64,000 nt of DNA from Phycisphaerae bacterium (GTDB lineage Bacteria > Planctomycetota > Phycisphaerae > UBA1845): NCBI GenBank assembly GCA_024102815.1, contig JAGFJJ010000068.1, positions 7,915 through 71,914 of the forward strand, given 5' to 3'. Below are positions 22,183-50,992 of the stretch, one piece after another; positions within the stretch are counted from its first letter, which is position 1; the number at the start of each line of letters is the position of its first letter. Below the pieces are notes generated by a model, which was not told the origin of the DNA, ran no database searches, and saw only the letters and a program-made list of their open reading frames with translations. A program made the position numbers and the translations under genes.

Positions 22183-22209
22183 GTTGCACAAAGGCGGATG
22201 TGAAATGCC

Positions 22210-23922: not shown

Positions 23923-26900
23923 ATGAAATCGGCGAACTTCGAGTTTCTACGCGGCCGATGGAAGGAGCTCGCGGGCCTTGGCGGGTTCGCCGAGCATTAC
24001 GTTCATCCTGACCCTCCAAGTGCCGCGGTCAAGCTTCGTTCCTACGCCGAGCAAATCGTTGAGCTTATCTGGGAAACCGCTCGTCTTCCAAAGCTCTTCC
24101 AAGCCAACCTTAACGATAAGCTGAACAACGATACGTTTCGAGAAGTCGTGCCGCGTGTTGTCGTGTCAAAGCTCCATGCGCTGAGAATCCACGGCAACAA
24201 GGCTGCGCACGGCGAAAAAGTGACCGCCTCGACCGCGCAGTGGCTCCTTCGCGAAGCCTTTGAGCTCGGGCGTTGGCTCCTCGTCGCATCAGGCGCCGGA
24301 AGTAAGGACGACTGCCCAGACTTCATTGAGCCATCACCGCCATCCGCCAAACCATCTGCCGATCAACTCAAGCAAGAAAAGCGTGCAGTGCTCGAGAAGC
24401 TTGCCGCACAAGAAGCGGAGATGCTAAAGCTCCTCGCCGAACTGGAAGCGGCGCGTGAGGCGGCCCAGACGGCGGAAGCCAGCGCTGACGAACTACGTTC
24501 CACACTCGAAGCCGGAACTCAGGCGGCAAACGTACTCGATTTCACCGAAGAACAAACTCGGCATGCGCTCATAGATTCCATGCTCATCAGTGCCGGCTGG
24601 GACGTCGGCCGAAACCGTCAGAGCAATTCGGAAGTAGGCCAAGAGATCGAAGTCGAGCATCAGCCCACCGACTCCGGCATCGGCTACGCCGACTATGTGC
24701 TCTACGACGAAGATGAAGTGACACCTCTAGCAGTAATCGAAGCGAAGAAGACATCCAAGGACGCTGAGGCCGGGAGGACCCAGGCCAAGTGTTATGCAGA
24801 CGGTCTTGAGCAGATGTCAGGCACTCGACCTGTCATCTTCTACACCAACGGGTTCGACATCTGGATTTGGAACGACGCCGAACATGAGCCACCACGCAAA
24901 ATCTTCGGCTTCTATTCCAAGGACAGCCTGCAGTACAAGCACTTTCAGCGACAGTACCCAATGGCCCCGTCGGTGGTCAAACCCGACGCGCAGATCGCGG
25001 GCCGACTCTACCAGATGGAAGCCATCAACCGCGTCGTGGAACGCTACGCAGCAAAACACTCCAGGGCTTTGCTCGTTCAGGCAACCGGTACCGGCAAAAC
25101 GCGCGTGGCCGTGTCTTTGTGCGCGGCGTTGATTAATGCGAAGCGCGTCCGACGAGTTCTGTTCCTTTGCGACCGACGGGAGCTACGGAAACAGGCCCAC
25201 AACGTGTTCAAACGGTTCTTGCCCGGCGAGCCGCGCGTCTACGTCAGCGCCACAACTGCCCAGGATCGCGACAAGCGCATTTACCTTGCGACCTACCCTG
25301 CCATGATGAAGTGTTTCGAGAGCTTCGACGTGGGCTTCTTCGATCTCATCATCGCGGACGAGTCCCATCGCAGCATCTACAACCGCTACCGGGATCTCGT
25401 TCGATACTTCGATGGCCTGTGCCTCGGGCTGACGGCCACGCCGCGAAGTGACTTGGTCTCACACAATACCTATCAGCTTTTCGGCTGCGACGACGGTGTT
25501 CCAACGGCCTACTTCAGCTACGAAGATGCAATCAATGCCAACCCGCCGTATCTGAGTCGGTTCGAGGTCGAGAAGGTTACGACGCCGTTCCTGCGCAAGG
25601 GCATCAAATACACCGAGATGACGGCCAAGCAGCGCGAGCAGCTCGAGGAAGACGAAGTGATGCCGGAGGCGATAGAGTTCGAGCAGCGTGAGGTTGACAA
25701 GCACATTTTCAACAAGGACACCAACCGTAAGATCCTTCGGAACCTGATGGAACACGGCATCCGTGACGCATCGGGCACGCGGGTCGGAAAGACCATCATC
25801 TTCGCGCGCAACCACAACCATGCCGTCTTGCTGCAGAACCTCTTCGATGAAATGTATCCACAGTATGGTGGAAACTTCTGCCGCGTGATTGACAACTACG
25901 ATCCACGCGCCGAGGAGCTCATCGACGATTTCAAGGGCGAGGGCAAGAATCCGGATCTGACGATCGCAATTTCCGTCGACATGCTCGACACGGGCATCGA
26001 CGTTCCCGAAATCGTAAACCTGGTGTTCGCCAAGCCGGTCTACTCGTACATCAAGTTCTGGCAGATGATCGGCCGGGGCACCCGTCTTTGCGAGGATCTC
26101 TTCGGGCGCGGCCAGAACAAGTCGAAGTTCCTCATCTTCGACCATTGGGGCAACTTCGAGTACTTCGAAGAACAGTACAAGGCCGCGGAGGTGAGCCTGC
26201 CGAAATCATTGCCTCAGCGACTCTTCGAGGCCCGCATCCGTTTGGCGGAAGCCGCGCTACAGCAGCAAGACACCGAGGCCTTCGACCTAACGATCTCGCT
26301 GATTCGGCAGGATATCGCCGACCTCCCCGACAAGACCATCGCCGTGCGCGAACACTGGAAGCAGATCAAAATCGTGGAACGCGAAGAACTGTTGCGCCAG
26401 TTCGATGCCGCAACCAAGGGAGTCCTTTTCCAGGAAATCGCTCCGCTCATGCAATGGCGAAATGTGGCGGGCCACGAGGCCGCGTACAAGTTCGATCTGA
26501 ACATGTGCATGGCCCAGAAAGCCCGGCTGGACAACGCCAGCCGGTACGGCGACCTGCGGGACGATCTTCGCAACCAGATCGAGCAGCTTCAGATGAACCT
26601 CAGCCAGGTCCGCGCCAGGGCGTCGGCCATCAACGAAGCGCGCAGTGCCGCCTTCTGGGATAACGCGACTGTATCCGACCTTGAGCGAATCCGTAGCGAG
26701 CTGCGCGGAATCATGAAGTACCGTCAGCCGTCGACGACGACAGCCTACCAACCCAAGGTCATCGACGTCGTCGAGGATGACGCGCTGATCGAACGAAAGC
26801 CGCACAAGGTTAAGCTGGAAGGGCTCGATCTCGCGGCCTACCGCGCCCGCGTCGAGCAGGTTCTCAAGGAACTCTTCGATGAAAACCCGACACTGCAACG

Positions 26901-27324
26901 CATCCAACGGGGCGAGCCGGTCACCGACGACGATCTACGCGCGTTGAATTCACTTGTGTTGACCCAGGACCCCGAACTCGACCTTTCCGAGTTGACGGAG
27001 TACTACCCCGAGACCGCCGGCCACCTGGACCTGGCGATCCGCAACATCATCGGCCTGGATGGCGCCGCCGTCCGCCGGCGATTCGAGACGTTTGTGCAGA
27101 CCCACGCGTCGCTGAACTCGCAGCAGATTCGTTTTCTAGACATGCTACAGAACCACATCGCCAGCTACGGCTCGATTACGGTCGATCGGCTTTACGAAGA
27201 TCCGTTCACCTCGCTCCACAGCGACGGCATCGATGGCGTGTTCACCGACGAGGCGACGATCCAGGAACTCATTGACATCATCGGGGCCTTCAACCCGGCC
27301 GCGCAAGGAGGCGAAAGCGAATGA
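23923..27324 (+). CDS. hsdR: type I restriction enzyme R subunit (DUF4145-like N-terminus, HSDR_N nuclease, SF2 helicase, EcoEI-type C-terminal domain)
   Basis: MKSANFEFL...[11 protein letters not shown] (DUF4145-like). [23 protein letters not shown] (PD-(D/E)xK). [10 protein letters not shown] and DESH helicase motifs. QMIGRGTR motif VI. Start at ATG 23923 preferred over the track start 23824. Confidence 0.9.
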
Positions 27325-28880
27325 TTACCGGCAAACTCAAGAGCGATATCAACAAGCTCTGGGATGAATTCTGGACTGGCGGCATCAGTAACCCGCTGAC
27401 CGTCATCGAGCAGATCACCTACCTCATGTTCTTCCGGCTGCTCGATCTCGCGGCAGCCCGGGAAGAAAAAAAGGCAGCTCGCACCGGCAAGAAGGCAACA
27501 ACGCCATTCAACAAGAAGCAGCAACTCCTTCGCTGGTCGCAATTCAAGAGCCTCGGCGGCGAGGAGATGCTCAAGCGCATCCGCGACGAGGTGTTCCCCC
27601 ATTTTCGCGACATGGCCAGCGAGGAATCGACCTTTGGGCGTTACATGAAGGACGCCCAGCTGATGATTCAAAAGCCGAGTCTGCTCGTCTCGGCCGTCTC
27701 GATGATCGACAACCTCCCGCTCGACAAGGGCGATACCAAGGGCGATCTGTACGAATACGTCCTCAGCAAACTCACGACCGCCGGGATTAACGGCCAGTTC
27801 CGCACACCGCGCCACATCATCCGCCTCATGGTCGAACTGGTCGATCCCAAGCCGGACGAAACCGTTGGCGACCCGGCCTGTGGAACCGGCGGGTTTCTTG
27901 TCGCAGCCATGACCTATCTGCTGGAGAAATACACGTCCAAGGCCGGGCGCATCGAACAACTCGACGAAGACGGCCGACCGGTCAAGGACGATCGCGGCAA
28001 TCCGCAGTACATCTACACCGGCGACAAACTTGAACCCTACCGCAAACATATTCAGCGCGACATGTTCCACGGCTTCGATTTCGACGCCACCATGCTGCGC
28101 ATCGCCGTGATGAACATGATGCTCCACGGCGTCGATAATCCCAGCATCGACTACCAGGATGCGCTCAGCAACTCCTTTCCCGAGCGCTTTCCGAAGACGG
28201 CCTCCGACCACTTCGATGTCATTTTGGCCAATCCGCCGTTCAAGGGCAGCCTCGATCACAGTGACGTGCATTCGTCACTAACGGGCAAGATCAAGACGAA
28301 GAAGACCGAGCTGCTCTTTCCGACGCTCATGCTGCGCATGCTGAAGGACCCGGGCGGGCGATGTGCAGTTATCGTCCCGGACGGTGTCCTGTTCGGTTCG
28401 TCCAAGGCCCATCGCGATCTCAAGCAGATGCTCGTGGACGACAATGAGCTGCACGCGGTGATCAAGCTGCCGGCTGGCGTGTTCAAGCCCTACGCCGGAG
28501 TATCGACGGCCATTCTGTACTTCGCCAAGGGGGGTAAGACCGGCGACGTGTTCTTCTACGATGTGCAGGCCGACGGGCTCAGCCTGGACGATAAGCGCAC
28601 GCCCGTCGACGAGAATGATCTTCCCGATGTGATGGCGCAGTGGAATAGGTGGAGTAACGGTAATGGCAAGAAATCGTTCGCCGATCGCAAGAACAAAGCG
28701 TTCTTCGTTCCGGTTTCGGATATCCGCGAAGCCAAATACGACCTTTCCATCAACCGCTACAAGGAGGTCGTCTACGAGGAGCCCGAGTTCGACCCGCCGA
28801 AAGCAATCTTGAAGCGATTGGCCAAGTTGAACGAACAAGAGGCCAAAGAGCTTGCTGAGCTGGAGGGAATGCTGAAGTGA
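27321..28880 (+). CDS. hsdM: type I R-M N6-adenine DNA methyltransferase subunit
   Basis: [13 protein letters not shown] (motif I) and LANPPFKG (NPPF). 4-bp overlap with hsdR. Confidence 0.95.
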
Positions 28881-30094
28881 TGCGTATGGCGGCATTGCAA
28901 GACGTAACTGAGCTAAACCCTTCGACACCGCGGGAACTAAGCGAGCGCCCTGAGCTCCCTGTCAGTTTCGTGCCAATGACTGATGTCGGAGAGGATGGTC
29001 GTCTTCACAACGGCCAGGAGCGCCCAGTCGGCGAGTTACTGAAGGGCTATACGTACTTCTCTGAGGGCGACGTGCTAGTCGCGAAGATCACGCCGTGCAT
29101 GCAAAACGGTAAGGCGGCGCACGTGACCCGGCTGAAAAACAAACACGCGTTCGGTTCGACCGAATTCCACGTTCTTCGTCCCGGCCCGACGCTTGACGGT
29201 CGATACCTCTTTTACATGGTCTGGAATCCAGCGTTCAGGCACTACGCCGAGCAGCGATTCACAGGCTCTGCGGGCCAAAAGCGCGTTCCCGCGACCGCAG
29301 TCGCGGAATTCAAGATCCCAATTCCATTTCCGAATGATGCGAAGCGCAGTCTAAAGGAGCAGAAGCGGATCGCGGAGATCCTCGACAAGGCCGACGCCAT
29401 CCGGCAACAGCGCCAAGAAGCCGCCAAGCTGGCCGGTGACCTCATCCCGAGCTTATTCTACACGACCTTCGACGACTGGCTCCGTGCGCCTGTCGAAGAG
29501 ATGCGCAGGCTCGGCGACGAAGATCTTGCGGATATCGCGTCCGGCGTTACGAAGGGGCGTCGATTCAATGGTCAGCAGACTGTCATCGTTCCCTACATCC
29601 GCGTCGCAAATGTACAGGACGGGTATCTCGACCTTTCGGAGATCAAGACAATAGAAGTCCTGCCATCCGATGTTGAATCGCTGCGGCTCGAACACGGCGA
29701 TGTCCTTATGACAGAAGGTGGTGACTTCGATAAGCTCGGGCGTGGCACGATTTGGGAACATGATGTTCCCGATTGCATTCATCAGAACCATATCTTTCGC
29801 GTTCGGTGCAACAGGAACTTACTTCTGCCGCTGTACTTTGCGCATTACATCCGAAGCCACCTTGGCAAGGCGTATTTTCTCAGATGCGCAAAGAAGACAT
29901 CGAATCTCGCGACCATCAATAAAACTCAGTTGCGAGACTTGCCTGTCCCGCTGCCTCCCATAGCCTTGCAGAAGGCATTTGCCAAAGAAGTGAAAGGCAT
30001 CCGCAAAATACAGGGCCGCCACGCTGAAATATGCTATGCTGGCGATGACCTCTTCAACTCGTTGGCACAGCGGGCATTTCGGGGAGAGCTATGA
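28877..30094 (+). CDS. hsdS: type I R-M specificity subunit (two target-recognition domains)
   Basis: [23 protein letters not shown]...[10 protein letters not shown]...TGSAGQKRV...[19 protein letters not shown] and a second TRD. 4-bp overlap with hsdM. Confidence 0.85.
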
Positions 30095-31556: not shown

Positions 31557-32210
31557 ATGAGCATCCGGGCAAGGATCGAAGATGCAGTTGTGCTGTGGCA
31601 CACTGGCCGGCGCGAGGGCGCCCTTCTCTCGGCGCTTGTCGCAGCGGCTGCAACATCGCGGAAACGCTATCCTAAGGGGCGGCACGCTTACGATCGGCGT
31701 CGTTCTCTAGTGCGGAGAGCGATCAACGGGCTCTTTGGCCGAGGGTCAAAGACCAACGCAGCACCACCGCACAAGCCCAATGTTTCCGACATTCATGGAA
31801 ACATGGAAATGGGCAAATACTGGCCATCTTCCGACAAGGAAAACAGGCTGAAGAAACCCAGAGGTGACCGCGTCGCCTTTACTCAATTCGTGCATGACGA
31901 GATGCGCCTGATCGGCGGGCCGGAGAACTTCAATCTGAAATTCAGAGGCGAAATGTGGCCACTCCAAGAACTCCTTTACACGTTCATCCGTTGCGAGCTG
32001 GCCCACGAGGCAGGCATACCGCGGGACATCGTTTTTGAGCCGGGTGATCAGTTCTCCATATGTGTCACTGACGAGCAACTTACGCTGCCTGAGATTCTGG
32101 TCGATCGCATCGCATCGGCCGTACGGCTGGCGCCGGAGAATGCGAGCGACTTCGAGAATTGGGACGAGTGGATTGTGGACACCTTTAGTAGCCGCAGTGA
32201 AGAGCTATGA
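31557..32210 (+). CDS. hypothetical protein
   Basis: GAGGAGAG upstream of the ATG. 217 aa with ordinary composition. No family recognised. Confidence 0.5.
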   Translation: MSIRARIEDAVVLWHTGRREGALLSALVAAAATSRKRYPKGRHAYDRRRSLVRRAINGLFGRGSKTNAAPPHKPNVSDIHGNMEMGKYWPSSDKENRLKKPRGDRVAFTQFVHDEMRLIGGPENFNLKFRGEMWPLQELLYTFIRCELAHEAGIPRDIVFEPGDQFSICVTDEQLTLPEILVDRIASAVRLAPENASDFENWDEWIVDTFSSRSEEL

Positions 32211-32229
32211 ATATTGTAGGAGTTGCCCC

Positions 32230-32547
32230 ATGTCCGAAATCGTGAAACGAGTTTCGCTACATTTTCCGGAAGAGAATTTGACCACCACGGCAAAAGTAGC
32301 TAACGCGATCATTCGCCCCGTCTACATTCGAGAAGAAGGTGAGGACACCTGTGTTTACTTACTCGTTGACGATAAGGAACAAACCACGGATGCTGATTTC
32401 TTCCTGCTGGCAACCAATGAAGCGATGCCCCCACGCCGAAACGCGGAATGGTTAGGTTCTTACGTGCGCGGCGACGGCGAAGTTTGGCACTTATTCGTCG
32501 AGCATCGCGCGGATAAAGGCCACAAATTCTGGAAGGCTTATGCATGA
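32230..32547 (+). CDS. hypothetical protein
   Basis: Internal ATG 32230 (MSEIVKRVSLHF...) lies 8 nt after AGGAG. The upstream part of track ORF 32035..32547 overlaps the previous gene. Confidence 0.4.
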   Translation: MSEIVKRVSLHFPEENLTTTAKVANAIIRPVYIREEGEDTCVYLLVDDKEQTTDADFFLLATNEAMPPRRNAEWLGSYVRGDGEVWHLFVEHRADKGHKFWKAYA

Positions 32548-32713
32548 AGGCCGCTGGCGAACGATGCTGAATATGATGGACGGACTCCGATCGACAAGGG
32601 CTGGGCACCTTGGATCATCCCGCGACGGTGGTGATCTTATCCATCTGCTCGATCAACGGGTGTTCTGAGGGATGTTATAGAGGCAACGACGCGGAAAAAA
32701 GCGAGAACGGCAA

Positions 32714-34633
32714 ATGGCGGACGACTATCAAATCCAGGTCAACTTCTTGCCGATCGTCGGTGAACTGCCGAGCTTCGAGGTGTACCGCCGGCTCCGCAAA
32801 GATCCACAGGAAGAAAGACCAAGCTCCGAGAGTATGTCGCATTCGCTGCCTGTCTCGGGCTCAGACCTTGAAGAGCGAGCATCTTACTGGGTGAGCTTCA
32901 CGCCCACGGATTCCTTCGAACGTGTTCCAGTGGAGCCCTCGTTCAACCACGACTTAACGCGCGCCTTGCTGTTCCGGTGCATGCGTGATGCTGCAACGCA
33001 GAAGCTCCAGTCGGAGGAGTTTCACATTCCAGATCGCGGTTTCGTGGACGAGATCAGCTTCGTCATGGCGCGGCATCGGGAAGGACAAGAGCTACTCGTT
33101 GTTCAGCCGTACTACCTGCGAGCGACAGGACGCTTTGGATATCTTGTAGACTTTCATTTCCGGCTCGCCGACGACGTTCCGTTCTCGCGCCGCGTACAGC
33201 AGTTGAGCCTCAGCCTGGATCGGAACTTTCATCGGAACCTGGACTACTACGTCGACCGAACAAGTCGAATTCGGGCATTCCTACAGACGCAGAAGGCCCT
33301 CCTCGCGTCGCTTTCTGTGCCAGGAGCTTCCGTGCCCATGCGGATCTCAGACGAATTCGTGGACTTGCGGGCATTCCGCCTGCGATCGCGTTCATACGTC
33401 TTCGGCGCCGGACGTGAATCGCGGAGCCAATTCGTGGGCCTGAAAGAGCACGGGCCCATGAAGCCGTTGGAAACATCGCCTCGGCTACTGTTCTTCTTTC
33501 GAGAGCAGGACCGCACCGCGGCACGGAAACTAGCAATGTCGCTACGCGGATCGGGTGGCCGGGAGAGGTTCGCGTTTCCCGGCTTTCGTGCCCTTTTCAA
33601 GACGGACCTAACGCTCGATTCAGATCCAATCGTGTTGCCCGACTTCTCCCAGGCAGCGATGGCTAACGCGCTCGCACGCGTCAAGGAAGAGGATGGCCTA
33701 GTGCTGCCCGTTCTTGTTCTGCCAGATGATGACGAGAACGCGTATCTGACGCACAAGGCCACGTTCGTGCATGCAGGAATACCGTCCCAGGTCTGCACGC
33801 TTCCCGTCATCCAAGATGACGACACGCTCAAGTGGTCGATCGCGAACATTGCGTTGCAGATCTTTTGTAAGGCCGGTGGACAACCCTGGAAGGTGCGCCC
33901 GACGGGTGAGCCTTCGGTTATCATCGGCATCAGCCAATCACACAAACTGCGCCGAAAAGACGAATCCATAACAGTCGAGAAGTACTTCGCGTTCTCCGTC
34001 ATGACTGATAGCAGCGGGCTGTTCCAGCGGATCCAAATACTGGGGGAGGCGAGTGACGAGCTTTCGTACCTGGACCAGCTGCGAACCAGCCTCGCGCAGG
34101 TATTGGCGGAGACGTCGCAGCGCTTTTCCCGAGTCGTGATTCACACGTCGTTCAAGCTTCGCCACCGCGAGATGGACGCCATTCACAAGACTGTCGCTCA
34201 GGCGGCCGGCAAGACGGATCGCACTCAATGCCGTTTTGCCGTTGTCAAAGTCAATCACCGCCATCGGTTCTTCGGAGTCAATCGAGCGGTCAATAGCCTA
34301 GTACCGTTTGAAGCCACCGCTGTGCGGCTTGGCCCTGGTGAGTATCTTGTCTGGTTTGAGGGCATATTCCCTGATAAGCCTACCGTTACCAAGGCATTCC
34401 CGGGTCCTACGCACCTCAAGTTCCTTCGCGTCAGCGACGACAATGCGATCACGGACAATGAGTTGCTTCAGGACTTGGTCAATCTGTCGGGAGCGAATTG
34501 GAGGGGCTTCAATGCAAAAAGTGCTCCCGTCTCCGTGTTTTACTGTCACCTCGTTGCGAATCTCGTCCATGACTTCCACGAGCGTGGCCTGCCACTTCCG
34601 GCTGTCCAGGATCTGCGTCCGTGGTTCTTATGA
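32714..34633 (+). CDS. prokaryotic Argonaute (MID-PIWI), catalytically inactive
   Basis: MID 5'-end pocket YLTHKATFVHAGIPSQV. KAGGQPWKV. The PIWI first catalytic position reads VIIGISQSH (no Asp) and the RDG position reads VVIHTSFKL. C-terminal PVSVFYCHLVANLV. ~270-aa N-terminal region with no recognisable PAZ. Confidence 0.85.
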   Translation: MADDYQIQVNFLPIVGELPSFEVYRRLRKDPQEERPSSESMSHSLPVSGSDLEERASYWVSFTPTDSFERVPVEPSFNHDLTRALLFRCMRDAATQKLQSEEFHIPDRGFVDEISFVMARHREGQELLVVQPYYLRATGRFGYLVDFHFRLADDVPFSRRVQQLSLSLDRNFHRNLDYYVDRTSRIRAFLQTQKALLASLSVPGASVPMRISDEFVDLRAFRLRSRSYVFGAGRESRSQFVGLKEHGPMKPLETSPRLLFFFREQDRTAARKLAMSLRGSGGRERFAFPGFRALFKTDLTLDSDPIVLPDFSQAAMANALARVKEEDGLVLPVLVLPDDDENAYLTHKATFVHAGIPSQVCTLPVIQDDDTLKWSIANIALQIFCKAGGQPWKVRPTGEPSVIIGISQSHKLRRKDESITVEKYFAFSVMTDSSGLFQRIQILGEASDELSYLDQLRTSLAQVLAETSQRFSRVVIHTSFKLRHREMDAIHKTVAQAAGKTDRTQCRFAVVKVNHRHRFFGVNRAVNSLVPFEATAVRLGPGEYLVWFEGIFPDKPTVTKAFPGPTHLKFLRVSDDNAITDNELLQDLVNLSGANWRGFNAKSAPVSVFYCHLVANLVHDFHERGLPLPAVQDLRPWFL

Positions 34634-34639
34634 GGTCGC

Positions 34640-35743
34640 GTGATGACAACTCGCTCTAAGGACATAATCCTGCTCTTCGGCGCCGGCGCAAGCGCCGAGG
34701 CGGGTATTCCGACATCAGGGCAGATGATCGAGAGAATCGAATCGCTCTTCACGTCGCATGATGACTGGAAGCCGTACTACGACCTGTACAACCACGTGAA
34801 GAGTGCAATCTACTACGCCGCAGGGCTCAAAGGACAATTCAACGCGGACGTGCTCTACAATATTGAGACCCTGGTGAACACCCTTTATGAATTGGAGCGT
34901 AACGAGGATCACCCGCTCTACCCATTTATCGCCTCCTGGAACTCCCGCCTCGTCGCCTTGGCGCAGGGGGACTTCGCAGGTGTCCGCTCCCTCCGCAGCT
35001 TGATCCTGCGAGAGCTGAAGGGCTGGGTATGCCCAGACGATACAACCCCGGCCGACTACTATCGGGGCTTACTGCAGCTTCAACGTGATCTCAACTACCC
35101 GCTCCGAATCTTCTCGCTGAATTACGACTTGCTTGTTGAACGGCTCGAATCACCTGAGTTTCACATTGAGACTGGTTTCGCAGGGTACGGTCCGAGCCAC
35201 ATCTGGGACTGGGAAAGGTTTGAGGATAGCGAGTCGTCACCTAACCCCTTGCCGCAGGCCTTCCTGTACAAGCTTCACGGCTCGATCAACTGGAAGCGTG
35301 ACGACGCGACGAAGAACCTTTACCGCGTCGAGCACGTCGCAACCGTCGAGCCCGAACGAATGGAAGTGATCTTCGGCCGAGACTTTAAGCTGGAAGCCGC
35401 CGATCCTTATTTGTTCTATGCGTATGAGTTTCGCAAGTTCACGCTGATTGCGAAGCTAATCGTCACTGTAGGATATGGCTTCGGAGATGCCCATATCAAC
35501 AAGATGTTGACCCAAAGCCTCCGGGATGAGGGTAGCAGAAAACTTATCGTCGTGGCGCGATGTGCTGACGAGGAAGAACGTCGCGCCAGGCGACAGGATA
35601 TCGAGGATCGTTTGGAGCTTGACGAAGGACACGATGATCAAATCGACGTGCGTTCAGAATCGGCGTGTGATTTCCTGGGAATGAACGAGCTGAGCAATGT
35701 CCTCTTGTCAGCAATACCTGAGAGCCCGAACGCGCCCTTCTAA
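34640..35743 (+). CDS. SIR2-family protein (pAgo-associated effector candidate)
   Basis: LLFGAGASAEAGIPTSGQM (GAGxSxxxGIP), FSLNYDLLVE, LYKLHGSINW (catalytic His context). Starts 7 bp after the pAgo stop (GTG 34640 or ATG 34643). Too short (367 aa) to carry an APAZ domain. Confidence 0.8.
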   Translation: MMTTRSKDIILLFGAGASAEAGIPTSGQMIERIESLFTSHDDWKPYYDLYNHVKSAIYYAAGLKGQFNADVLYNIETLVNTLYELERNEDHPLYPFIASWNSRLVALAQGDFAGVRSLRSLILRELKGWVCPDDTTPADYYRGLLQLQRDLNYPLRIFSLNYDLLVERLESPEFHIETGFAGYGPSHIWDWERFEDSESSPNPLPQAFLYKLHGSINWKRDDATKNLYRVEHVATVEPERMEVIFGRDFKLEAADPYLFYAYEFRKFTLIAKLIVTVGYGFGDAHINKMLTQSLRDEGSRKLIVVARCADEEERRARRQDIEDRLELDEGHDDQIDVRSESACDFLGMNELSNVLLSAIPESPNAPF

Positions 35744-35767: not shown

Positions 35768-37618
35768 GTGCTTGCCGACTGTAACCAAGGTGCTCTGGAA
35801 CTGATCTTGAACATCGACGAATGCCAACTTGACGAAGTTCTGGACCGATTCGACGGGCAGACCGCGCCTTTCGACGAAGTCGAGATCACGGAAGCCATAC
35901 AGACCCTGGCGCACGCGCGTGGGGATGTTCAAAAGCTCAGCGAACATGAACTTGCCGAGGGGATGGCGTTTAGCTTTGCCACCACGTGTCCAGAGGAGCC
36001 GTCACCGTGGGGAACGTACTACGGACCCAAGAACGAGTGGCAGACCAAGAGCGGGGAACGCGTCGAGCGCCCCAGCATCAAGAGCGTGTCGGAGAGCATG
36101 CTCAAGTACTGGGAGTGTCGCCTCGAGAAAGCGAAGCACCCGCGACTTCGAGCCAGATACGCAGATCTGATCTTTGATTTTACAGAGAAGATCACAGGCA
36201 AGAAGCCGGACTACCAGCTTGCACACGTGGTTATTGACGAGACAGTTCAACTCGTCGAGGAACGGCTATTTCATTTCATGAGTGATGTCCGTGTCAAACT
36301 GACACGAGCCTTAGATCTTGCCGTCCGGCTCAACGACCAGGAGAGAATCAAGCGAGTGTGCGACGCCATTATCGCTTGTGAGGAGAAGAGCTTAGATAAC
36401 GACGGTGATGCGGCTCGCGGTCTTGCATTCGACCTTCTTGTTGAAGGCGACCATAAGGTGAAGCTCAGTGAGCAACAGGAAGCGGGCGTGATCGCTGGAC
36501 TCGAGAAACACCTCGTGTGCGTAGCGACAGGTGAGCCGCCGAAGTTTGACCCATTCGGCACCGAATCTTCGGCACTGCGGCTCGCGCACTACTATCGGCG
36601 CAAAAAGCGCGGTGACGACCTTCAACGCGTCCTACGCCTTTACACCGATGCATGGATTCGCATCTCGAGCGAGGCTTGGCCGATGCTGGGCGCCACTTGG
36701 CTGGAGAAGGTCCACAAGGTGCTGCTCGACTTCGGTCGGAAACAAGACGCAGACGCCCTGGAGGTTCGACTCCGGAAGTTGGCCGGCAGGTCGCACGAGA
36801 ATATGGCTACAATTCGTCATAGCGTCCAGTTTACCCAAGAGGAGGTTGATGAGTTCCTCAATGCTACGACCGCCGGTGATTTGCATACGACCCTGGCGCG
36901 CATCGCTGTCCAATTCCTGCCGGATCCCGAGGACGCCAAGAAGCAGGTGCTCGATACTGCCGAACAGTCTCCGCTCTTTTCACTTTTCACCAAGCGGATC
37001 ATCGATTGGGACGGGAGAGTCATCGCCGATGTCGGATCGCCAGAGAACGACATGGAGGGACAGGTCGCCCACGAGATAGGAGAAAGTATGGGCTTCTGGG
37101 TCCCGTTCCTTCGGGCGACCATCGAGAAGATGGGCGAGAAGTACGCTGTTTCTCCGGACGACATTCTTGATTTTCTATATCTATCGCCAGCGCTCACCGA
37201 GGATCGGCGCGACCTGATTCGCGCTGGGGTCGATGCGTACCTTAACGGCCAGTGCGCATTGGCGGTACACATTCTGGTGCCGCAAATCGAGGGCGCCGTG
37301 AGGAACTTGGTCGGCGGACTTGGCGGGCCGGTACTCGAACGCGGTCGCCATGGAGGAATGAATCTGAGAAACCTCGATAAGCTGCTCCGGGATGAGCGAT
37401 TGACTGCCGCGCTAACTGATCGCGTGTCAGTTTATCTGCGCGTTTTGTTCACCGACCAGCGCGGCTGGAACGCACGCAACAACATCTGCCATGGCCTTCT
37501 ACCAGGGGCACAGATTGGAACACCCATAGCGGATCGAGTGTTTCATGCCCTGTTGCTTCTCGGAGCACTGCGCGAAGGAACGCCGGCACCCGACGAGGAG
37601 AAAGGCAGCGGTAGCTGA
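35768..37618 (+). CDS. DUF4209-like protein
   Basis: The C-terminal GWNARNNICHGLL fits the RNxxxHG signature I associate with DUF4209. Large helical protein with a GTG start 25 bp after the SIR2 stop. Confidence 0.6.
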   Translation: MLADCNQGALELILNIDECQLDEVLDRFDGQTAPFDEVEITEAIQTLAHARGDVQKLSEHELAEGMAFSFATTCPEEPSPWGTYYGPKNEWQTKSGERVERPSIKSVSESMLKYWECRLEKAKHPRLRARYADLIFDFTEKITGKKPDYQLAHVVIDETVQLVEERLFHFMSDVRVKLTRALDLAVRLNDQERIKRVCDAIIACEEKSLDNDGDAARGLAFDLLVEGDHKVKLSEQQEAGVIAGLEKHLVCVATGEPPKFDPFGTESSALRLAHYYRRKKRGDDLQRVLRLYTDAWIRISSEAWPMLGATWLEKVHKVLLDFGRKQDADALEVRLRKLAGRSHENMATIRHSVQFTQEEVDEFLNATTAGDLHTTLARIAVQFLPDPEDAKKQVLDTAEQSPLFSLFTKRIIDWDGRVIADVGSPENDMEGQVAHEIGESMGFWVPFLRATIEKMGEKYAVSPDDILDFLYLSPALTEDRRDLIRAGVDAYLNGQCALAVHILVPQIEGAVRNLVGGLGGPVLERGRHGGMNLRNLDKLLRDERLTAALTDRVSVYLRVLFTDQRGWNARNNICHGLLPGAQIGTPIADRVFHALLLLGALREGTPAPDEEKGSGS

Positions 37619-37732
37619 CGTGTACAAACAGGCTTGCATCCGGACAAGTCGCCTTGTGCTGTTGCTCGCGGGCAGATGCGCACGAATGGGCCTGCGAGGC
37701 CCTGGAGGGTTCCCGTGGTCATGGTGGCGGAG

Positions 37733-37747
37733 TGGCACGGCGGTTGC
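37733..37747 (+). promoter_or_regulatory. candidate sigma-54 (-24/-12) promoter upstream of the DUF2130 gene
   Basis: gTGGCACG-GCGG-TTGCc matches TGGCACG-N4-TTGC exactly in both core boxes. ~46 bp upstream of ATG 37793, with AAGGAG in between. Confidence 0.55.
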
Positions 37748-37792
37748 CCTTAGGCAGGTAAAGATGACTGACACGATGGCAAGGAGAATAAA

Positions 37793-39259
37793 ATGAGCAG
37801 CACCATCACCTGCCCCAACTGTGACAACGAGATCGAGATTACTGAAGTCATGTCGGCCCAGCTTCGCGACGAAATTCGCCGTGAACTGGAGAAGGACGTC
37901 AACGTCAAGCGGCAACAACTCACGGCACGGGAACGCGAGATCGAGAAACGCCAGCTCGAGATCGATGAGGCGGAGAAATCGATCGACGCGAAGGTCGGCA
38001 AGCAACTCGCTGCCGAGCGCGATAAGCTCGAGGCGAGTGCCAGAGCGAAAGCGAAGGAGGAGCTGGGTGTCGAACTGAAGGACCGGGACGCGCAGATCAC
38101 GGAGCTGCGCGACAAGGTGAAGACCGCCGAGGAGACGGAGCTAGCTCTTCGCAAGAGGGAACGGGAACTTAAGGATCGGGAAGGTGAGCTTGCCCAGCAG
38201 CGGGACCGGATGGAGGAGGAGGCTCGCCAGAAGCTCGACGCTGCGCGACAAGGACTGATTGACCGGGCCAAGGCCGAAGCGAAGAACGAGCTGTCCGTCG
38301 AAATGAAGGATCGTGATGAACGCGAGGCCGAGCTGCGCGGTAAACTCGACGAGGCCAACAAGCAGGAACTCGAATGGCGGAAGCGCGAACGAGCCCTGAA
38401 CGCGGAGAAGGAAGAACTGGAGCTTTCAGTACAACGGCGTCTCACTGAAGAACGCGACAAGATTCGTGACGAAGCGCTCAAGAAGGCGGATGAGGATCAT
38501 CGATTGAAGGATGCCGAGAAGGACAAGAAGATCACCGATCTGGTGAAGCAGCTCGACGAGGCCAAGCGTCGTGCCGAGCAGGGTTCTCAGCAGTCGCAGG
38601 GCGAGATCCAGGAGCTGGCGCTTGAGGAGATGCTTGCGAGCCGATTCCCCGCTGACGATTTTGCGGAGATCGGCAAAGGCGTGGCCGGCGCCGACGTGAT
38701 GCAGCGTGTGCGGACGTCGGCCGGTGTCGATGCCGGCTCGATCCTCTGGGAATCAAAACGAACGAAGAGCTGGAAGAAGGAGTGGCTGCCGAAGCTGCGC
38801 AAGGATCAACGCGAGGCGAAGGCTGACGTCACCGTGATCGTTAGTGCGCACCTGCCCGACGGCGTGGAGACTTTTTCGCAGATTGATGGTGTGTGGGTCT
38901 GCAGCTGGCCGTGCGCTGTGAGCCTGGCGATGGCACTGCGCAGTGGGTTGCTTGAGACGGCCAAGGCCCGCCGAGCGCTGGCCGGGCAACAGGGGAAGAT
39001 GGAACAGGTGTACAACTACCTGGCCAGCCCGGAGTTTCGCAACCGCGTGGCCGGGATTGCCGAGGCGTTCGCCACGATGCAGCAGGATCTGGACAAAGAG
39101 AAGCGGGCGATCCAGAACCACTGGGCCAAACGGGAAAAGCAGATCGAGCAGGCGGTGGCTAACACGGCCGGAATGTACGGCGATTTGCAGGGCATCATCG
39201 GCGGATCCCTCCCGGAAATTCAGGGGATGGACATGTTGATGCTTGAGGCGAATGCATGA
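37793..39259 (+). CDS. DUF2130-family protein (N-terminal zinc ribbon, long coiled coil, C-terminal nuclease-like domain)
   Basis: ITCPNCDNEIEI start. ~250 aa of Glu/Lys/Arg coiled coil. C-terminal GADVMQRV...GSILWESKRTKSWKKEWLPKLRKDQREAKADVTVIVSAHLP is typical of DUF2130 as I recall it. Confidence 0.75.
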   Translation: MSSTITCPNCDNEIEITEVMSAQLRDEIRRELEKDVNVKRQQLTAREREIEKRQLEIDEAEKSIDAKVGKQLAAERDKLEASARAKAKEELGVELKDRDAQITELRDKVKTAEETELALRKRERELKDREGELAQQRDRMEEEARQKLDAARQGLIDRAKAEAKNELSVEMKDRDEREAELRGKLDEANKQELEWRKRERALNAEKEELELSVQRRLTEERDKIRDEALKKADEDHRLKDAEKDKKITDLVKQLDEAKRRAEQGSQQSQGEIQELALEEMLASRFPADDFAEIGKGVAGADVMQRVRTSAGVDAGSILWESKRTKSWKKEWLPKLRKDQREAKADVTVIVSAHLPDGVETFSQIDGVWVCSWPCAVSLAMALRSGLLETAKARRALAGQQGKMEQVYNYLASPEFRNRVAGIAEAFATMQQDLDKEKRAIQNHWAKREKQIEQAVANTAGMYGDLQGIIGGSLPEIQGMDMLMLEANA

Positions 39260-39308: not shown

Positions 39309-40202
39309 ATGACCGACAAAAGCGATCAAGGTCTTGACAATCAAACCGGTGGAGTCAAGTTCGGGCATCACATCGTCACGCTGATCGACTTCCTGGGCCA
39401 GCAAAGGCAACTTGAGAAATGGGATTTTCTTCCCGAAACTGAGTACGACACGGACGAGTTTGTCGCAGCGGTGCGCGCAACATTCGGCAAGGTAACCGTT
39501 TGGCGCGACCAGTTCAGCGAGAAGTTCAATCTCTGGCTGGAATCACGGTCGCTGCCGGTTGAGTTTGCGAAGACACTCCCTGACGAGGGTCGCGCGTATC
39601 GTGAGTTTGCACATACCACACTGGACTTCATGCAATTCTCCGACACGATTGTGATCTACTCGCCGATCGTCAATCAATACGGCCACGCAAACTGCGGGAC
39701 GGTCCTAGCTCATTTGTTTACTTGTGGGACCCTGATGCTGGCGGCGCTCAACCAGGATTGCGCGTTCCGCGGCGCCATCGAAATCGGCATGGCTGGGCAG
39801 ATCGACGAGGCAGGGATCTACGGGCCAGTTCTCGGCTCCGTCCATAACCTTGAGAGCACGGTGGCCGAGTATCCCCGGATTCTCGTTGGAGATAGACTTC
39901 ACGAGTACCTTGTTGCCCAGGCAGCAGATCCCGAGGATTCTCGGGAATCGAAAACGAATCGTGAAATCGCGAAGACATGCCTGAGATTGATCGGCATCGA
40001 CCTCGATCAACACAGGATTCTCGACTACATGGGGCGCGGGTTTGTTGAGTTTGCCACGAACAAGGATAGTTGGAACATGCTTCGCGATGGAGCATGTGCG
40101 TTCGCGGATCAGGAACGTGAGCGATTCAATGAGGCCGCCGACCAGAAACTTGCAGATCGATATACCCGTATGTGCGAGTACCACGCGTCACGAAGCACGT
40201 GA
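39309..40202 (+). CDS. hypothetical protein; possible nucleotidyl-cyclase/palm-like fold (weak)
   Basis: ATG 39309 (MTDKSDQG...). HHIVTLIDFLGQQ, MQFSDTIVIYSP and AFRGAIEIGMAGQIDEAGIYGPVLGSVHNLES loosely parallel class III cyclase blocks (xDIxGFT / GDxxxxxF / RIGIHxG...G..VN.A.R.ES). Confidence 0.45.
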   Translation: MTDKSDQGLDNQTGGVKFGHHIVTLIDFLGQQRQLEKWDFLPETEYDTDEFVAAVRATFGKVTVWRDQFSEKFNLWLESRSLPVEFAKTLPDEGRAYREFAHTTLDFMQFSDTIVIYSPIVNQYGHANCGTVLAHLFTCGTLMLAALNQDCAFRGAIEIGMAGQIDEAGIYGPVLGSVHNLESTVAEYPRILVGDRLHEYLVAQAADPEDSRESKTNREIAKTCLRLIGIDLDQHRILDYMGRGFVEFATNKDSWNMLRDGACAFADQERERFNEAADQKLADRYTRMCEYHASRST

Positions 40203-40250: not shown

Positions 40251-41819
40251 ATGATCACAGCCATCGAAATCGAAAACTTCAAGGGGATTGCGGACCGCAT
40301 TCGCATCGATCTCAAGCCAATCACCTTACTGTTCGGTGCCAACAGCTCGGGAAAGAGCACGATCATCCACGCCCTCCATTACGCACGCGAGGTTCTCGTA
40401 CGCCAGAATCTCGACGCCGACCGGACAGAGGCGGGCGGCGAGTTCATAGACCTCGGAGGATTCAGAAACTTCGTCCACAACAGGGACTTGGACCGCGAGA
40501 TCCACCTGCGCTTTGCCCTCAGTTTGCCTGAGGGTGAGATGCTTCCGTACTTTGGTCGATCGTCAGAGCAGCCGTATGGCGAGACCTTGCTTGATCTTCT
40601 GAATCACGTTCGCACGGCCGAGGTGGAGATTGTAATCGCATGGAGCCGGGCTGCTGAGCGACCATATGTTAAGCAGTATCTCGTTGATATTGATGGCTCG
40701 CGCGTTGGCACGCTCGCTGCGACGCCGGATACCCCGCACCAAGCGATGCTCTTGGTTGAGCGTTTGCACCCGTGGCTTAATGCGCAACCCGACAGTGCGG
40801 ATCCGGACACGCCGACAGAATGGCGGCAGATGGTGGACGATGTGCTCCCCGATGCGCCCCCGAAGTGGTTTGAGTTGCCCGTTGAGGCGCGACACGAGGC
40901 TCTGCCGAGTCTCGATTCCGGCCTATCTTGCCCGAAGCTCTTCGAGGACGTGGAGTTGGAGAAGCAGCCACTGGCAGAATCTATGATGCACGTCGTAAAT
41001 CGCATGGTGCTCGGCCCTGGCAAACTCGTTCGAGATGTTCTGCGGGCCTTTCGGTACATCGGGCCGCTACGAGAGAAGCCGCCACGTGCCTTCGAGGCGC
41101 CTCGCTTTCCCGATCCCTCACGATGGACAACCGGGATCGCCGCTTGGGACACGCTCTACAATGGAAACCGCGATGTTCTGGAGGAAGTGGGTGAGTGGTT
41201 GTCCGAACCGTCGCGTTTGGCGGCCGGCTGCTGGTTAAGGATGACCGAATACAAGGAGCTCGAGGTTGACAATCCGTTGATGTCACAATTGATGCTCGGC
41301 CACGCGTTCGATGACACCGATTTGGAGGAGGCCCGACAGTACTTGCAGCAGCTACCCGTTCGTAGGCGGTTGTTTTTGGTTGACCGAGAGTCCGGCGTCG
41401 CGCTGTTGCCGCACGATGTAGGAGAGGGGATTTCGCAGATTGTTCCCGTCGTCGTAGCCTTGTTGGAACAGAACCGACCGTTAACCGCCGTGGAACAGCC
41501 CGAGCTTCACGTGCACCCCGCCGTACAGGTGGGTATCGGCGACCTTTTGATCGAGGCCGTCGAGCGCGGAGAGTTCCCGGTCGTGCTTGAAACGCATAGC
41601 GAACATCTACTCCTCCGCCTTCTCCGCCGAATTCGCGAATCGGGAGAGAATGCACTTCCGCCGGATGTTCACGGCCTGTCGCCGTCGGACCTGTCGGTTG
41701 TTTTTCTTGACCTATCGGATGCCGGTATCCGAGTTACAAGTCTTCGCATCGATGAAACGGGCGAGTTCATTGACCGTTGGCCGCAGGGGTTCTTCGAGGA
41801 ACGACTACCTGAAGTGTGA
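40251..41819 (+). CDS. ABC/SMC-like AAA ATPase (AAA_15/21 type, DUF3696-like C-terminus)
   Basis: IENFKGI...LLFGANSSGKSTIIHAL (Walker A). VEQPELHVHP...VLETHSEHLL (Walker B / D-loop / H). C-terminal FIDRWPQGFFEE. Confidence 0.85.
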   Translation: MITAIEIENFKGIADRIRIDLKPITLLFGANSSGKSTIIHALHYAREVLVRQNLDADRTEAGGEFIDLGGFRNFVHNRDLDREIHLRFALSLPEGEMLPYFGRSSEQPYGETLLDLLNHVRTAEVEIVIAWSRAAERPYVKQYLVDIDGSRVGTLAATPDTPHQAMLLVERLHPWLNAQPDSADPDTPTEWRQMVDDVLPDAPPKWFELPVEARHEALPSLDSGLSCPKLFEDVELEKQPLAESMMHVVNRMVLGPGKLVRDVLRAFRYIGPLREKPPRAFEAPRFPDPSRWTTGIAAWDTLYNGNRDVLEEVGEWLSEPSRLAAGCWLRMTEYKELEVDNPLMSQLMLGHAFDDTDLEEARQYLQQLPVRRRLFLVDRESGVALLPHDVGEGISQIVPVVVALLEQNRPLTAVEQPELHVHPAVQVGIGDLLIEAVERGEFPVVLETHSEHLLLRLLRRIRESGENALPPDVHGLSPSDLSVVFLDLSDAGIRVTSLRIDETGEFIDRWPQGFFEERLPEV

Positions 41820-41828
41820 CGTACCGCG

Positions 41829-42770
41829 ATGCTACACGAGTTTGCGATCGACCCAGCGGCTATGAATAGCCTCGACAGAGTCGCACGTTTTATGGCTGCG
41901 TGTGGATCGGATACGCCGCGCCTTGTGTCGCACATGCCCTGCGGTGGTTGGCTTAACGCGGCGGTTAAGGCCTGTGCGATCGCTGGTTGTGGACCACACG
42001 CGCAAAAGCGCGTTGAAATCTTGATCGACGCTGCGATAAAGCGAGGCCGATTCATCGACCGTCAACGAAAAGCGCCTGCGACTATCACCTGGATCCAAGC
42101 GGCACTCGATGAACATGCCCGGCTACCCTTCCGTGCGATTCTCTCCAATCAACGCATTACCGATTCGCCCGTTACGTTGAACGTCGAGGACGATCTTTCT
42201 GATGAAACCCTGTGGAACCCGCCGAGGTCGGTGACGATACAACGGACCATTCCTGCATTGGTCGAGACTCTCCGCCCTATGCTCCAGCTGGCACGGAAAG
42301 TCGTGATAATAGAGCCGAACTTCGACATCGGCAGTCGTTCGTTCACGGAACCGTTAAGAGCCATGCTCCTTGAAGCGAACAAGACGCCGCCAGATCTCAA
42401 ACTGGTCGAGTTGCACATGACCAACAGCTTTGACGGCCTGCACAACTACCTTGCCGATGAATGTCGCGAGCAGATCGAACTGCTCATTCCCGCCAATGTA
42501 AACGCAGAGATATACTTATGGGAAGGCGGTGTCCTCAGAGGGAATACCTCGGCAACCGATCGGTTGCATGATCGCTTCATGTTGACAAACCGAGGTGGGG
42601 TAATGGTCGGATGGGGATTCGACACGCGTCCCGGATCGCAAACTACGATCACACTTCTTGATGACACGACGTGCCGTGAAATCGAGCGGGATGTATCGTG
42701 CGAGACGCGCCGGTTCCGTATGGCCGGTCGCTCACCCATCCAGTTTACGGGCCGTGCCATGCCGTCATGA
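41829..42770 (+). CDS. hypothetical protein, partner of the AAA ATPase
   Basis: Starts 9 bp after the ATPase stop. 313 aa with ordinary composition. Conserved-looking DRLHDRFMLTNRGGVMVGWGFD near the C-terminus. No family recognised. Confidence 0.55.
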   Translation: MLHEFAIDPAAMNSLDRVARFMAACGSDTPRLVSHMPCGGWLNAAVKACAIAGCGPHAQKRVEILIDAAIKRGRFIDRQRKAPATITWIQAALDEHARLPFRAILSNQRITDSPVTLNVEDDLSDETLWNPPRSVTIQRTIPALVETLRPMLQLARKVVIIEPNFDIGSRSFTEPLRAMLLEANKTPPDLKLVELHMTNSFDGLHNYLADECREQIELLIPANVNAEIYLWEGGVLRGNTSATDRLHDRFMLTNRGGVMVGWGFDTRPGSQTTITLLDDTTCREIERDVSCETRRFRMAGRSPIQFTGRAMPS

Positions 42771-50236: not shown

Positions 50237-50992
50237 TCAACCAGCGCTCCTTTCTGATTCACGGTCGGCAAAGAGCTCCGGTGCGATTTCGGAGAGCGTC
50301 TTCGGCTCCCAGTACAGGTCCCGTTCAATGGGAAGTCCCATCGGGCCACGCGCCGACTCGAGCTCTGACAGGCTGAAGTAGCCAAGCTCCTTCTCGAATC
50401 CACACGCCAGTCCGAAGAATGTGTCCTCGCCATCATATTCCACGCCGTACCATGTCCATCCAGAATCCGGCGTGAAGAACTTCACGTACGCAACTGCATG
50501 GCCCCCCTTGCCGTCCTGGGCATAGAGCGGCGGGAGCCGGCGGCGCAGCGCTTTGGTTAGGAGTTTCATCCCTCGGACGACCGTGGCGTCCTTCCTGAGG
50601 TCGTTCGGCACCGGCGGCGCCGGTACCGCTGGAATGAACTTCACCTGATTCGCCTCGGGCATCAGAACAACGCGCTCGTTGCGGTCGCTGAGCCACTCGA
50701 TGTACGGGTACGGCGTGTATGACTCCGGCGCAAGGCCCGCCGTCATGTTCCCGGTGAGTCCCGTCTGCTGCAGCGCAAACCCCTCCATCTGATCCTCTGC
50801 TTCCATGGCTGTTCCTTCGTAACACCCTGAGAGGACGAGCTTGCCGCCCCGAACGTCGCGATCGAAGTCGCCCTCCAGGTCTACGGTCACGGTTTCTTCC
50901 AGGCCCGCAAACCGCAGCCAGCCTATGACTCTGCCAGGTCTGGTGTTGTCCAATTCGCCTTCAAGCAAATACTTCATAGGTCTCCATGTCAT
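50237..50992 (-). CDS. DUF2958-domain protein
   Basis: LPPLYAQDGKGGHAVAYVKFFTPDSGWTWYGVEYDGEDTFFGLACGFEKELGYFSLSELE. ATG 50992 is preceded by GGAGG. Confidence 0.8.
   Translation of the reverse strand: MTWRPMKYLLEGELDNTRPGRVIGWLRFAGLEETVTVDLEGDFDRDVRGGKLVLSGCYEGTAMEAEDQMEGFALQQTGLTGNMTAGLAPESYTPYPYIEWLSDRNERVVLMPEANQVKFIPAVPAPPVPNDLRKDATVVRGMKLLTKALRRRLPPLYAQDGKGGHAVAYVKFFTPDSGWTWYGVEYDGEDTFFGLACGFEKELGYFSLSELESARGPMGLPIERDLYWEPKTLSEIAPELFADRESERSAG

Follow-up and report, generated by a model that had tools for sequence, protein, structure and literature searches.

A probable sigma-54 promoter with its own candidate enhancer in a defence island headed by an RtcR-like CARF activator

Introduction

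Can several unrelated defence modules of a bacterium be switched on together by a single sensor protein and, if so, through which promoters? The question is raised by a 64,000-nt stretch of contig JAGFJJ010000068.1 from a Phycisphaerae bacterium (below, the window), which carries a lower-GC, plus-strand defence island with positive AT skew at 22-43 kb. The island is headed by the gene of a putative bacterial enhancer-binding protein (bEBP) with a CARF sensor domain, which stands before a series of co-directional defence genes with type I restriction-modification (R-M) in first place. Two sites resembling sigma-54 (-24/-12) promoters are found there: P1, directly behind the activator gene, and P2, in front of a gene for a DUF2130 protein. 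An earlier reading of the DNA (the original prediction) had taken both as promoters of an island-wide sigma-54 regulon. Beyond a few repressor families, little is known of how costly or self-toxic defence systems are controlled. A testable wiring is offered by this locus and its approximately 80 relatives: a sensor-activator is combined with a defined enhancer motif and, in each island, with at least two predicted sigma-54 promoters.

Here we describe a computational analysis of P2 and its surroundings. P2 is very probably a genuine sigma-54 promoter with its own enhancer. For the full model, in which P2, the activator, the enhancer arrays and the regulon belong together, we estimate a probability of roughly 75%, and our confidence in P2 as a sigma-54 promoter, taken alone, is higher.

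Results

Sequence and position of P2

The P2 core was found to agree with TGGCACG-N4-TTGC at every position, as originally claimed, and the window sequence around it reads gaGTGGCACGGCGGTTGCCctt. Its GG and GC doublets are exactly 10 bp apart within TGGCAC-N5-TTGC. The 17-mer quoted earlier covers 37732-37748, with the core proper inside it. P2 lies on the plus strand, within the 174 nt that separate the DUF2130 start from the stop of DUF4209 (37618), and has the same direction as the DUF2130 gene; its description as an intergenic plus-strand site in the island of the bEBP gene was correct. We counted 45 nt between the core and the ATG at 37793, where 46 bp had been given, and found the reported Shine-Dalgarno sequence AAGGAG at 37781-37786, 6 nt ahead of the ATG. 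From the usual geometry of sigma-54 promoters, transcription would start approximately 12 nt past the -12 C. The leader that follows is predicted to be unstructured, and comparison with Rfam matched no family and no known RNA element. Neither an intrinsic terminator nor a sigma-70 promoter was found in the gap (37618-37793).

We estimated how often such a site would arise by chance. On both strands of the window the exact core occurs once, where 0.05 occurrences are expected (matches were seen in 5 of 100 shuffles). The relaxed pattern TGGCAC-N6-TGC occurs three times, at 23796 (P1), 37733 (P2) and 40706, always on the plus strand, against an expectation of 0.54; none of the 100 shuffles reached three. 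P1 and P2 had been described as the only sites with a properly spaced GC box, a count that the site at 40706 raises to three. We rejected this third site as a promoter. It lacks an enhancer motif and is separated by more than 1.1 kb from the next gene start, and its score with the lineage matrix described below (12.0 bits) is at chance level, since 81% of shuffled windows attain it.

A scan with a position-weight matrix, proposed earlier for the window and the genome, was carried out on the window. A generic sigma-54 matrix, which was our own approximation from the published consensus, did not separate P2 from the background. It gave no discrimination and was replaced by a lineage matrix built from 50 sites of homologous loci, none of them from the window. 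Over 128,000 window positions, the lineage matrix ranked P1 first (18.6 bits) and P2 second (17.5 bits), and the next match scored 12.0 bits. The best match of a shuffled window reached the score of P2 in 6.5% of shuffles.

P2-like sites at other DUF2130 genes

The closest homologue of the DUF2130 protein is 84% identical and was found on two contigs (L001 and L002) that encode the same protein. Both keep TGGCACGctggTTGC 44-45 nt before the ATG, even though the spacer and all DNA upstream of the core differ. To widen the comparison, we collected, wherever upstream DNA was present, DUF2130 genes from loci that share the activator family or the type I R-M genes with the window. A site with at most 2 mismatches was found in all eight of them (L001, L007, L008, L010, L030, L075, L078 and L080), with the first ATG 32-60 nt further on. 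As a control, we used 72 metagenomic DUF2130 loci (27-53% identity) whose retrieved flanks, of up to 8 kb, showed no CARF activator. These yielded 1 weak sigma-54-like site and no enhancer motif, which ruled out sigma-54 control as a general feature of DUF2130 genes. Since the site accompanies 8/8 linked genes and 1/72 control genes, the predicted promoter is, on this comparison, a property of DUF2130 genes in activator-type islands and not of DUF2130 genes in general. These counts and the retained core of the 84% orthologue support the reading of P2 as a promoter. The idea of an island-wide sigma-54 regulon is likewise strengthened, as the sites precede DUF2130 genes only where a CARF-type activator is near and the enhancer motif described below is shared.

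P1 as a family trait

Sites of the P1 type were sought in 80 homologous loci, mostly from Planctomycetota, that had been retrieved with the CARF domain alone as the query. Within 200 bp past the activator stop, a sigma-54 core was present in 39 of the 65 evaluable loci at up to 1 mismatch and in 51 at up to 2 mismatches; among random 240-bp segments of the same loci the corresponding figures were 0.9% and 2.9%. Most of these sites stand 15-45 bp after the stop. The earlier reading of P1 as a promoter is supported by this recurrence. Homologous islands are carried, among others, by the cultivable Novipirellula rosea JCM 17759 (L031), Novipirellula herctigrandis CA13 (L069), Botrimarina hoheduenensis Pla111 (L064), Gemmata algarum JC673 (L090) and Pirellulaceae SH449 (L063). 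Homologues of hsdR were found downstream of the activator and co-directional with it in 38 of the 80 loci, in the order activator-hsdR-hsdM-hsdS.

The longest hsdR open reading frame (ORF) of the window opens with an ATG at 23824, 13 nt past P1, which would imply a leader of only 3 nt. The public gene call puts the start at the equivalent of 23923, and the product then begins with MKSANFEFL, a typical N-terminus. Most likely, hsdR starts at ATG 23923 and not at 23824, and the P1 leader would therefore be approximately 100 nt long.

The activator

The product of the first island gene was compared with domain models. Pfam gave Sigma54_activat (E 3.9e-63), HTH_8 and a weak match to Csm6-CARF, and the GAFTGA, Walker A and Walker B motifs can be read in the sequence. 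The PADLOC model PDLC01995 (RtcR_PspF2--CARF_AAA_HTH) was matched over its full length (E 2.5e-168, residues 3-521 against 2-481 of 481). RtcR (NF038308) was the best NCBIfam model, with 314.9 bits under an equivalog cut-off of 650 bits. This shortfall, together with neighbours that are hsdRMS and not rtcBA, ruled out an RtcR orthologue. By its domain matches the activator is RtcR-like, of the RtcR_PspF2 group, and not a generic NtrC protein.

A putative sigma-70-like promoter precedes the activator gene, and its layout (TTGCxx-16/17-TACAAT) recurs before homologous activator genes elsewhere. The -10 element and leader of this promoter overlap an enhancer-like array (array 0, below), which suggests autoregulation of the activator. 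Many related loci also have a divergent sigma-54 promoter opposite the activator-upstream array, at a distance of 70-170 bp; near the array of the window no divergent sigma-54 site was found.

Candidate enhancer arrays

An upstream activating sequence (UAS) shared by the two promoters had been proposed as a further test of the regulon. Direct comparison of 12-mers was dropped as a way of calling the enhancer because its result was at chance level, and we turned to the homologous loci. Most of them have in common, before the activator ATG, the layout TACAAT-N5-TTTGTG-N6-CACAAA-N5-TGGTG. The candidate enhancer consists of two tandem (C)ACAA-N6-TTGT(G) palindromes spaced approximately 20 bp centre to centre. 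A profile made from 36 other loci, with the window left out, gave exactly three top matches in the window, all of them inside the island (arrays 0-2). The motif of array 0 is kept at the activator-upstream position in most of the 80 loci. Array 2 is made up of ACAA-acaggc-TTGC (37624-37637) and ACAA-gtcgcc-TTGT (37644-37657). A four-half-site pattern matched only array 2 and the activator-upstream region, with 0 matches expected, though this pattern was partly shaped after array 2 had been seen. The proposed shared upstream motif does exist: it stands 75-115 bp before P2, before the activator gene and inside it, and not directly upstream of P1.

The intragenic copy recurs as well. About 38 homologous loci have a match at its position (+1200 to +1230, counted from the start codon), and the copy is written with A/T-ending codons that are unusual for GC-rich genomes. 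When 67 homologues were compared, third-position entropy within the gene was lowest in the 13-codon window from codon 401 (1.22 bits, with a gene mean of 1.61 bits), and third-position A/T content was highest in the windows from codons 401-406 (0.51-0.55, compared with 0.32). A downstream sigma-54 site was found in 32 of 33 loci with the intragenic motif and in 19 of 32 without it (Fisher p=2e-4).

Away from the activator gene, internal sigma-54 sites of L007 (three times), L008, L014, L021 and L078 are preceded by copies of the motif at distances of 37-264 bp. Of the independent non-activator matches, 6/8 have a sigma-54 site within 400 bp that points away from the motif, compared with 9% of random positions. 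We read the ACAA-N6-TTGT arrays as candidate binding sites of the activator.

A Gemmata-like, very GC-rich subgroup (L046, L050, L055, L057, L058 and L059) has neither the intragenic motif nor a sigma-54 site past the activator stop, and it uses GC-rich synonymous codons at the position of the motif. The tandem promoter after the activator appears to have been lost in this subgroup, or never to have been present.

Internal sigma-54 sites were also noted in other islands of the activator family, at 4809, 7089 and 9954 of L007, 5987 and 9951 of L008, 18017 of L021, 11637 of L014 and 18787 of L073, most of them with the motif upstream. These sites precede small helix-turn-helix (HTH)-like genes, followed by TIR operons, a patatin gene, SMODS/CD-NTase or a metallo-beta-lactamase-fold gene.

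Genes of the island and its flanks

The features of the window are collected in Table 1.

Table 1. Positions of promoters, candidate enhancer arrays and genes in the 64,000-nt window
Feature	Position	Strand	Remarks
Putative sigma-70-like activator promoter, TTGGCG-16 nt-TACAAT	22144-22171	+	predicted, read from sequence
Array 0, ACAA-N6-TTGT then CACAA-N7-TGTG	22163-22208	+	best profile match, E 7.3e-6; just before activator ATG
Activator, CARF - sigma-54 AAA+ - Fis-type HTH (RtcR-like bEBP)	22210-23775	+	Pfam, PADLOC, NCBIfam
Array 1, inside activator ORF (codons ~403-415)	23416-23452	palindromic	E 0.013 (-), 1.4 (+); ~345-380 bp upstream of P1
P1, sigma-54 core TGGCACGgcccCTGC	23796-23810	+	one mismatch; starts 21 nt past activator stop
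Type I R-M: hsdR (revised start 23923), hsdM, hsdS	23923-30094	+	Pfam; longest ORF from 23824
Coiled-coil protein, 437 aa	30091-31404	+	
217-aa protein	31557-32210	+	
Long Argonaute (pAgo)	32714-34633	+	
SIR2 partner of Argonaute	34640-35743	+	
DUF4209 / PDC-S39	35768-37618	+	
Array 2	37621-37660	+	second-best profile match, E 0.0081; 75-115 bp upstream of P2
P2, sigma-54 promoter core TGGCACGgcggTTGC	37733-37747	+	zero mismatches to TGGCACG-N4-TTGC
Predicted P2 leader	37759-37792	+	start from usual sigma-54 geometry
DUF2130 gene	37793-39259	+	Pfam DUF2130, E 5.2e-67; zinc-ribbon-like CxxC start and CPNC motif visible
Class III cyclase-fold gene (319-aa protein)	39309-40202	+	ORF opens 39243; ATG 39309 is the public start
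AAA_15/AAA_21 ATPase	40251-41819	+	Pfam, PADLOC
Third relaxed sigma-54 match TGGCACGCTCGCTGC	40706-40720	+	inside AAA_15 ORF; correctly spaced GC box
313-aa partner of ATPase	41829-42770	+	adjacent to ATPase
Ser/Thr kinase with TPR repeats	5641-7275		
ThiF/E1-like protein	13229-14719		beside large proteins without family match
Replic_Relax (relaxase-like)	16465-17538		
pRiA4_ORF3	20493-21152		
CobT-vWA and MoxR-like AAA	44089-47222		
DUF2958	50237-51025		
HerA/TraG-like ATPase	54602-56719		
Cdc6/Orc1-like	58948-60195		

DUF2130 is mentioned in a survey of PD-(D/E)XK families (PMC3424549). Behind its gene lies that of the 319-aa protein, for which comparison by sequence with Pfam, NCBIfam, PADLOC and PDB gave no family. 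Its AlphaFold2 model has a pLDDT of 90.1, and the 50 best PDB fold matches comprise only adenylyl and guanylyl cyclases of class III, at modest TM scores and a best E of 1.5e-4. At the level of the fold, its earlier description as cyclase-like is therefore reasonable. Among 27 homologues S111, D112 and R154 are invariant, D27 and G155 are nearly so, and the conserved Asp residues are candidates for metal binding. Judged by this model, the protein could make a nucleotide signal. A 78%-identical homologue is located in L001 near DUF2130, after a DUF3825 gene. As L001 was the only one of the other loci compared in which a homologue was seen, the protein is unlikely to be the general source of the CARF ligand.

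The AAA_15 ATPase and its 313-aa partner have PADLOC matches that include NsnB, PDC-M55A and HEC-03B. The pair recurs in L025, L026 and L066, and L022 has a homologue of the 313-aa protein with no ATPase match. For the 313-aa and DUF2130 proteins, searches of Pfam, NCBIfam, PADLOC and PDB were uninformative beyond the DUF2130 domain. When ten island proteins were compared with PADLOC, no CoCoNuT or McrBC model was among the matches listed.

In L003 (8206-11470), overlapping DUF4209 and DUF2130 genes are followed by an AAA_15 gene. Because of this arrangement, DUF4209, DUF2130 and AAA_15 may form one functional module, which in the window would be split by the enhancer/P2 cassette and the cyclase-fold gene. 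The 504-bp gap before pAgo-SIR2 (32210-32714) has no sigma-54 site and no enhancer motif, and its only sigma-70-like match (32591-32618) is at chance level; pAgo and SIR2 may be transcribed by read-through from P1 or from a promoter of their own.

The flanks of the island (1-21700 and 43000-64000) resemble a plasmid or integrative element. Their relaxase-like, pRiA4-ORF3, DUF2958, HerA/TraG-like and Cdc6-like genes suggest a mobile element, and the kinase-TPR and ThiF/E1-like genes may be further conflict systems.

Discussion

A model for the island

The sequence elements described above, their conservation and their statistical coupling across loci lead us to the following model. P2 would belong to a defence island that a Planctomycetota-like bacterium acquired horizontally and that is headed by one RtcR-like EBP with a CARF sensor, a sigma-54 AAA+ ATPase with GAFTGA and a Fis-type HTH. 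The HTH would bind the two-palindrome enhancer, (C)ACAA-N6-TTGT(G) twice, at three places: the activator's own promoter, the activator coding sequence (for P1) and the DNA approximately 85-105 bp upstream of P2. When the CARF domain receives a signal, presumably related to infection, the ATPase would remodel the sigma-54 holoenzyme waiting at P1 and P2. P1 would drive type I R-M, perhaps together with genes further on; P2 would drive the DUF2130 nuclease-like gene, the class III cyclase-fold gene and the AAA_15 ATPase with its partner. We infer here the binding of the activator, the firing of the promoters, the identity of the signal and the extents of the transcripts. The planctomycete Rhodopirellula baltica has rpoN, and its product has been detected (PMC2754498).

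Several observations weigh against this model. With the generic matrix P2 scored 12.5 bits, and shuffled windows yield 3.6 matches above 12 bits, so that P2 is not singled out; its G at -27 and C at -11 are non-preferred bases. The comparison of 12-mers shared among the 260 bp upstream of P1, P2 and 40706 gave four matches, about the number expected by chance. Array 2 (E 0.008) and the intragenic array (E 0.013) are each marginal when taken alone, and the candidate enhancer of P1 is unusually distant (approximately 345-380 bp) and within coding DNA. The activator-upstream motif overlaps the sigma-70-like -10 element, and part of its conservation could therefore be promoter conservation. In L003 the DUF2130 gene overlaps the preceding DUF4209 gene by 8 nt, with no upstream gap and no promoter of its own, so an own DUF2130 promoter is not obligatory. 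Finally, no terminator-like site was found in the DUF4209-DUF2130 gap, and read-through from P1 may therefore already express the P2 genes. P2 may serve to boost the distal genes, or to uncouple them from P1, rather than be their sole promoter. The operon limits given in the original prediction (P1 through pAgo; P2 to 42770) are hypothetical.

Alternative explanations

The alternative that survives best, improbable in our view, accepts P2 as a real sigma-54 promoter and places it under an EBP encoded elsewhere in the genome, with the arrays bound by another factor such as a repressor or nucleoid protein. The marginal match of array 2 would fit this, and Planctomycetes encode many enhancer-binding proteins. 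However, the motif accompanies the activator gene in most of the 80 loci, which come from many genera, and it recurs only beside sigma-54 sites within the same islands. Moreover, DUF2130 genes without a detected CARF activator have neither site nor motif, the single weak control site excepted.

It is also quite improbable that the motif is no enhancer at all. It would then be a sigma-70 -10 element (TACAAT) with a leader or autorepression operator, its likeness to the DNA near P2 and within the activator gene would be coincidental, and P2 would have its enhancer elsewhere or be activated from solution. The spacing of TACAAT 16-17 nt after a TTGCxx or TTGGCG hexamer in many loci speaks for such a promoter element, as does the fact that the four-half-site pattern took shape partly after the P2 region was seen. 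On the other hand, the profile built without the window still has its three best window matches in the island. The intragenic copy also coincides with the strongest synonymous-site constraint in the gene and goes with a downstream promoter, and the copies in L007, L008, L014, L021 and L078 lie off the activator promoters, yet upstream of sigma-54 sites.

That P2 is a chance match in GC-rich DNA, with the DUF2130 set read through or transcribed from an unrecognised housekeeping promoter, is very improbable: the unexceptional generic score, the 6.5% of shuffles that reach its lineage score, the lack of a terminator-like site upstream and the promoterless DUF2130 gene of L003 would all allow it, whereas the low expectation for the exact core (0.05 per window), the intergenic, co-oriented position 45 nt from the ATG, the core kept beside a diverged flank in the 84% orthologue, the 8/8 against 1/72 DUF2130 genes and an enhancer-like motif at the expected distance oppose it.

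Consequences

Promoters of the sigma-54 type are essentially silent without their activator, and they are therefore a plausible restraint on R-M, NADase-linked Argonaute, nuclease and cyclase modules. A sensor-type activator at the head of the island could bring several unrelated defence modules into action at the same time, through at least two promoters. We give even odds to a broader reading, according to which unrelated modules in Planctomycetota and relatives were wired into one inducible regulon under one CARF activator by portable cassettes of two-palindrome enhancer and sigma-54 promoter, the activator having one of its enhancers within its own coding sequence. The modules concerned would be type I R-M, DUF2130 nuclease-like, TIR operons, patatin, CD-NTase and the cyclase-fold gene with the AAA_15 pair. 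If so, modules could be gained or lost while the arsenal stays silent until one infection signal arrives.

Comparison with known systems

In the NtrC-type layout, adjacent inverted repeats upstream of a -24/-12 promoter (e.g. glnAp2) assemble the activator oligomer, and the UAS of NifA is TGT-N10-ACA. The candidate enhancers described here resemble NtrC-type enhancers in having two inverted repeats on the same face of the helix, approximately 80-130 bp upstream of the promoter. They differ from those of NtrC and NifA in the half-site, (C)ACAA-N6-TTGT(G), and in one candidate copy that lies in coding DNA at the distance given above for P1.

The RtcR/rtcBA systems of Escherichia coli and Salmonella share the CARF-AAA+-HTH architecture, and RtcR is the best NCBIfam match of the activator; in these systems the activity of a sigma-54 promoter is controlled by way of a CARF sensor domain (PMC9650030, PMC4012209). 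Unlike RtcR, the activator of the window is assigned by PADLOC to the separate RtcR_PspF2 group. Its predicted targets are defence genes instead of RNA repair genes, and it stands in tandem with them, whereas RtcR is divergent from its targets. The window further differs in that at least two promoters are predicted and one of the candidate enhancers lies within the activator ORF. RtcR of E. coli is reported to become constitutive when truncated at its N-terminus.

The closest precedents are two descriptions of islands led by such activators. Makarova et al. 2014 reported RtcR-like CARF activators beside R-M genes and predicted sigma-54-dependent activation (PMC4012209). Bell et al. 2024 (eLife) described defence superoperons of up to 40 kb led by RtcR homologues, with the same prediction, and expected the internal promoters of superoperons to be RtcR-independent (PMC11090510). 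In both papers the regulation was deduced from the order of the genes, with neither promoters nor enhancers mapped (PMC11090510, PMC4012209), and our literature search found no paper mapping the promoters or enhancer of these RtcR-like-led islands. The island of the window agrees with these superoperons in its CARF activator at the 5' end of a co-directional defence array with type I R-M next. It differs in that its internal promoter is of the sigma-54 type, with an enhancer-like motif of the same kind as at the activator gene, and in its content of a long pAgo with SIR2, DUF4209, DUF2130, a cyclase-fold protein and an AAA_15 pair. Portable cassettes, if real, would contradict the expectation that internal superoperon promoters are independent of the activator. 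Internal cassettes of sigma-54 promoter and enhancer, together with an enhancer inside the activator ORF, appear to be new additions to this predicted class.

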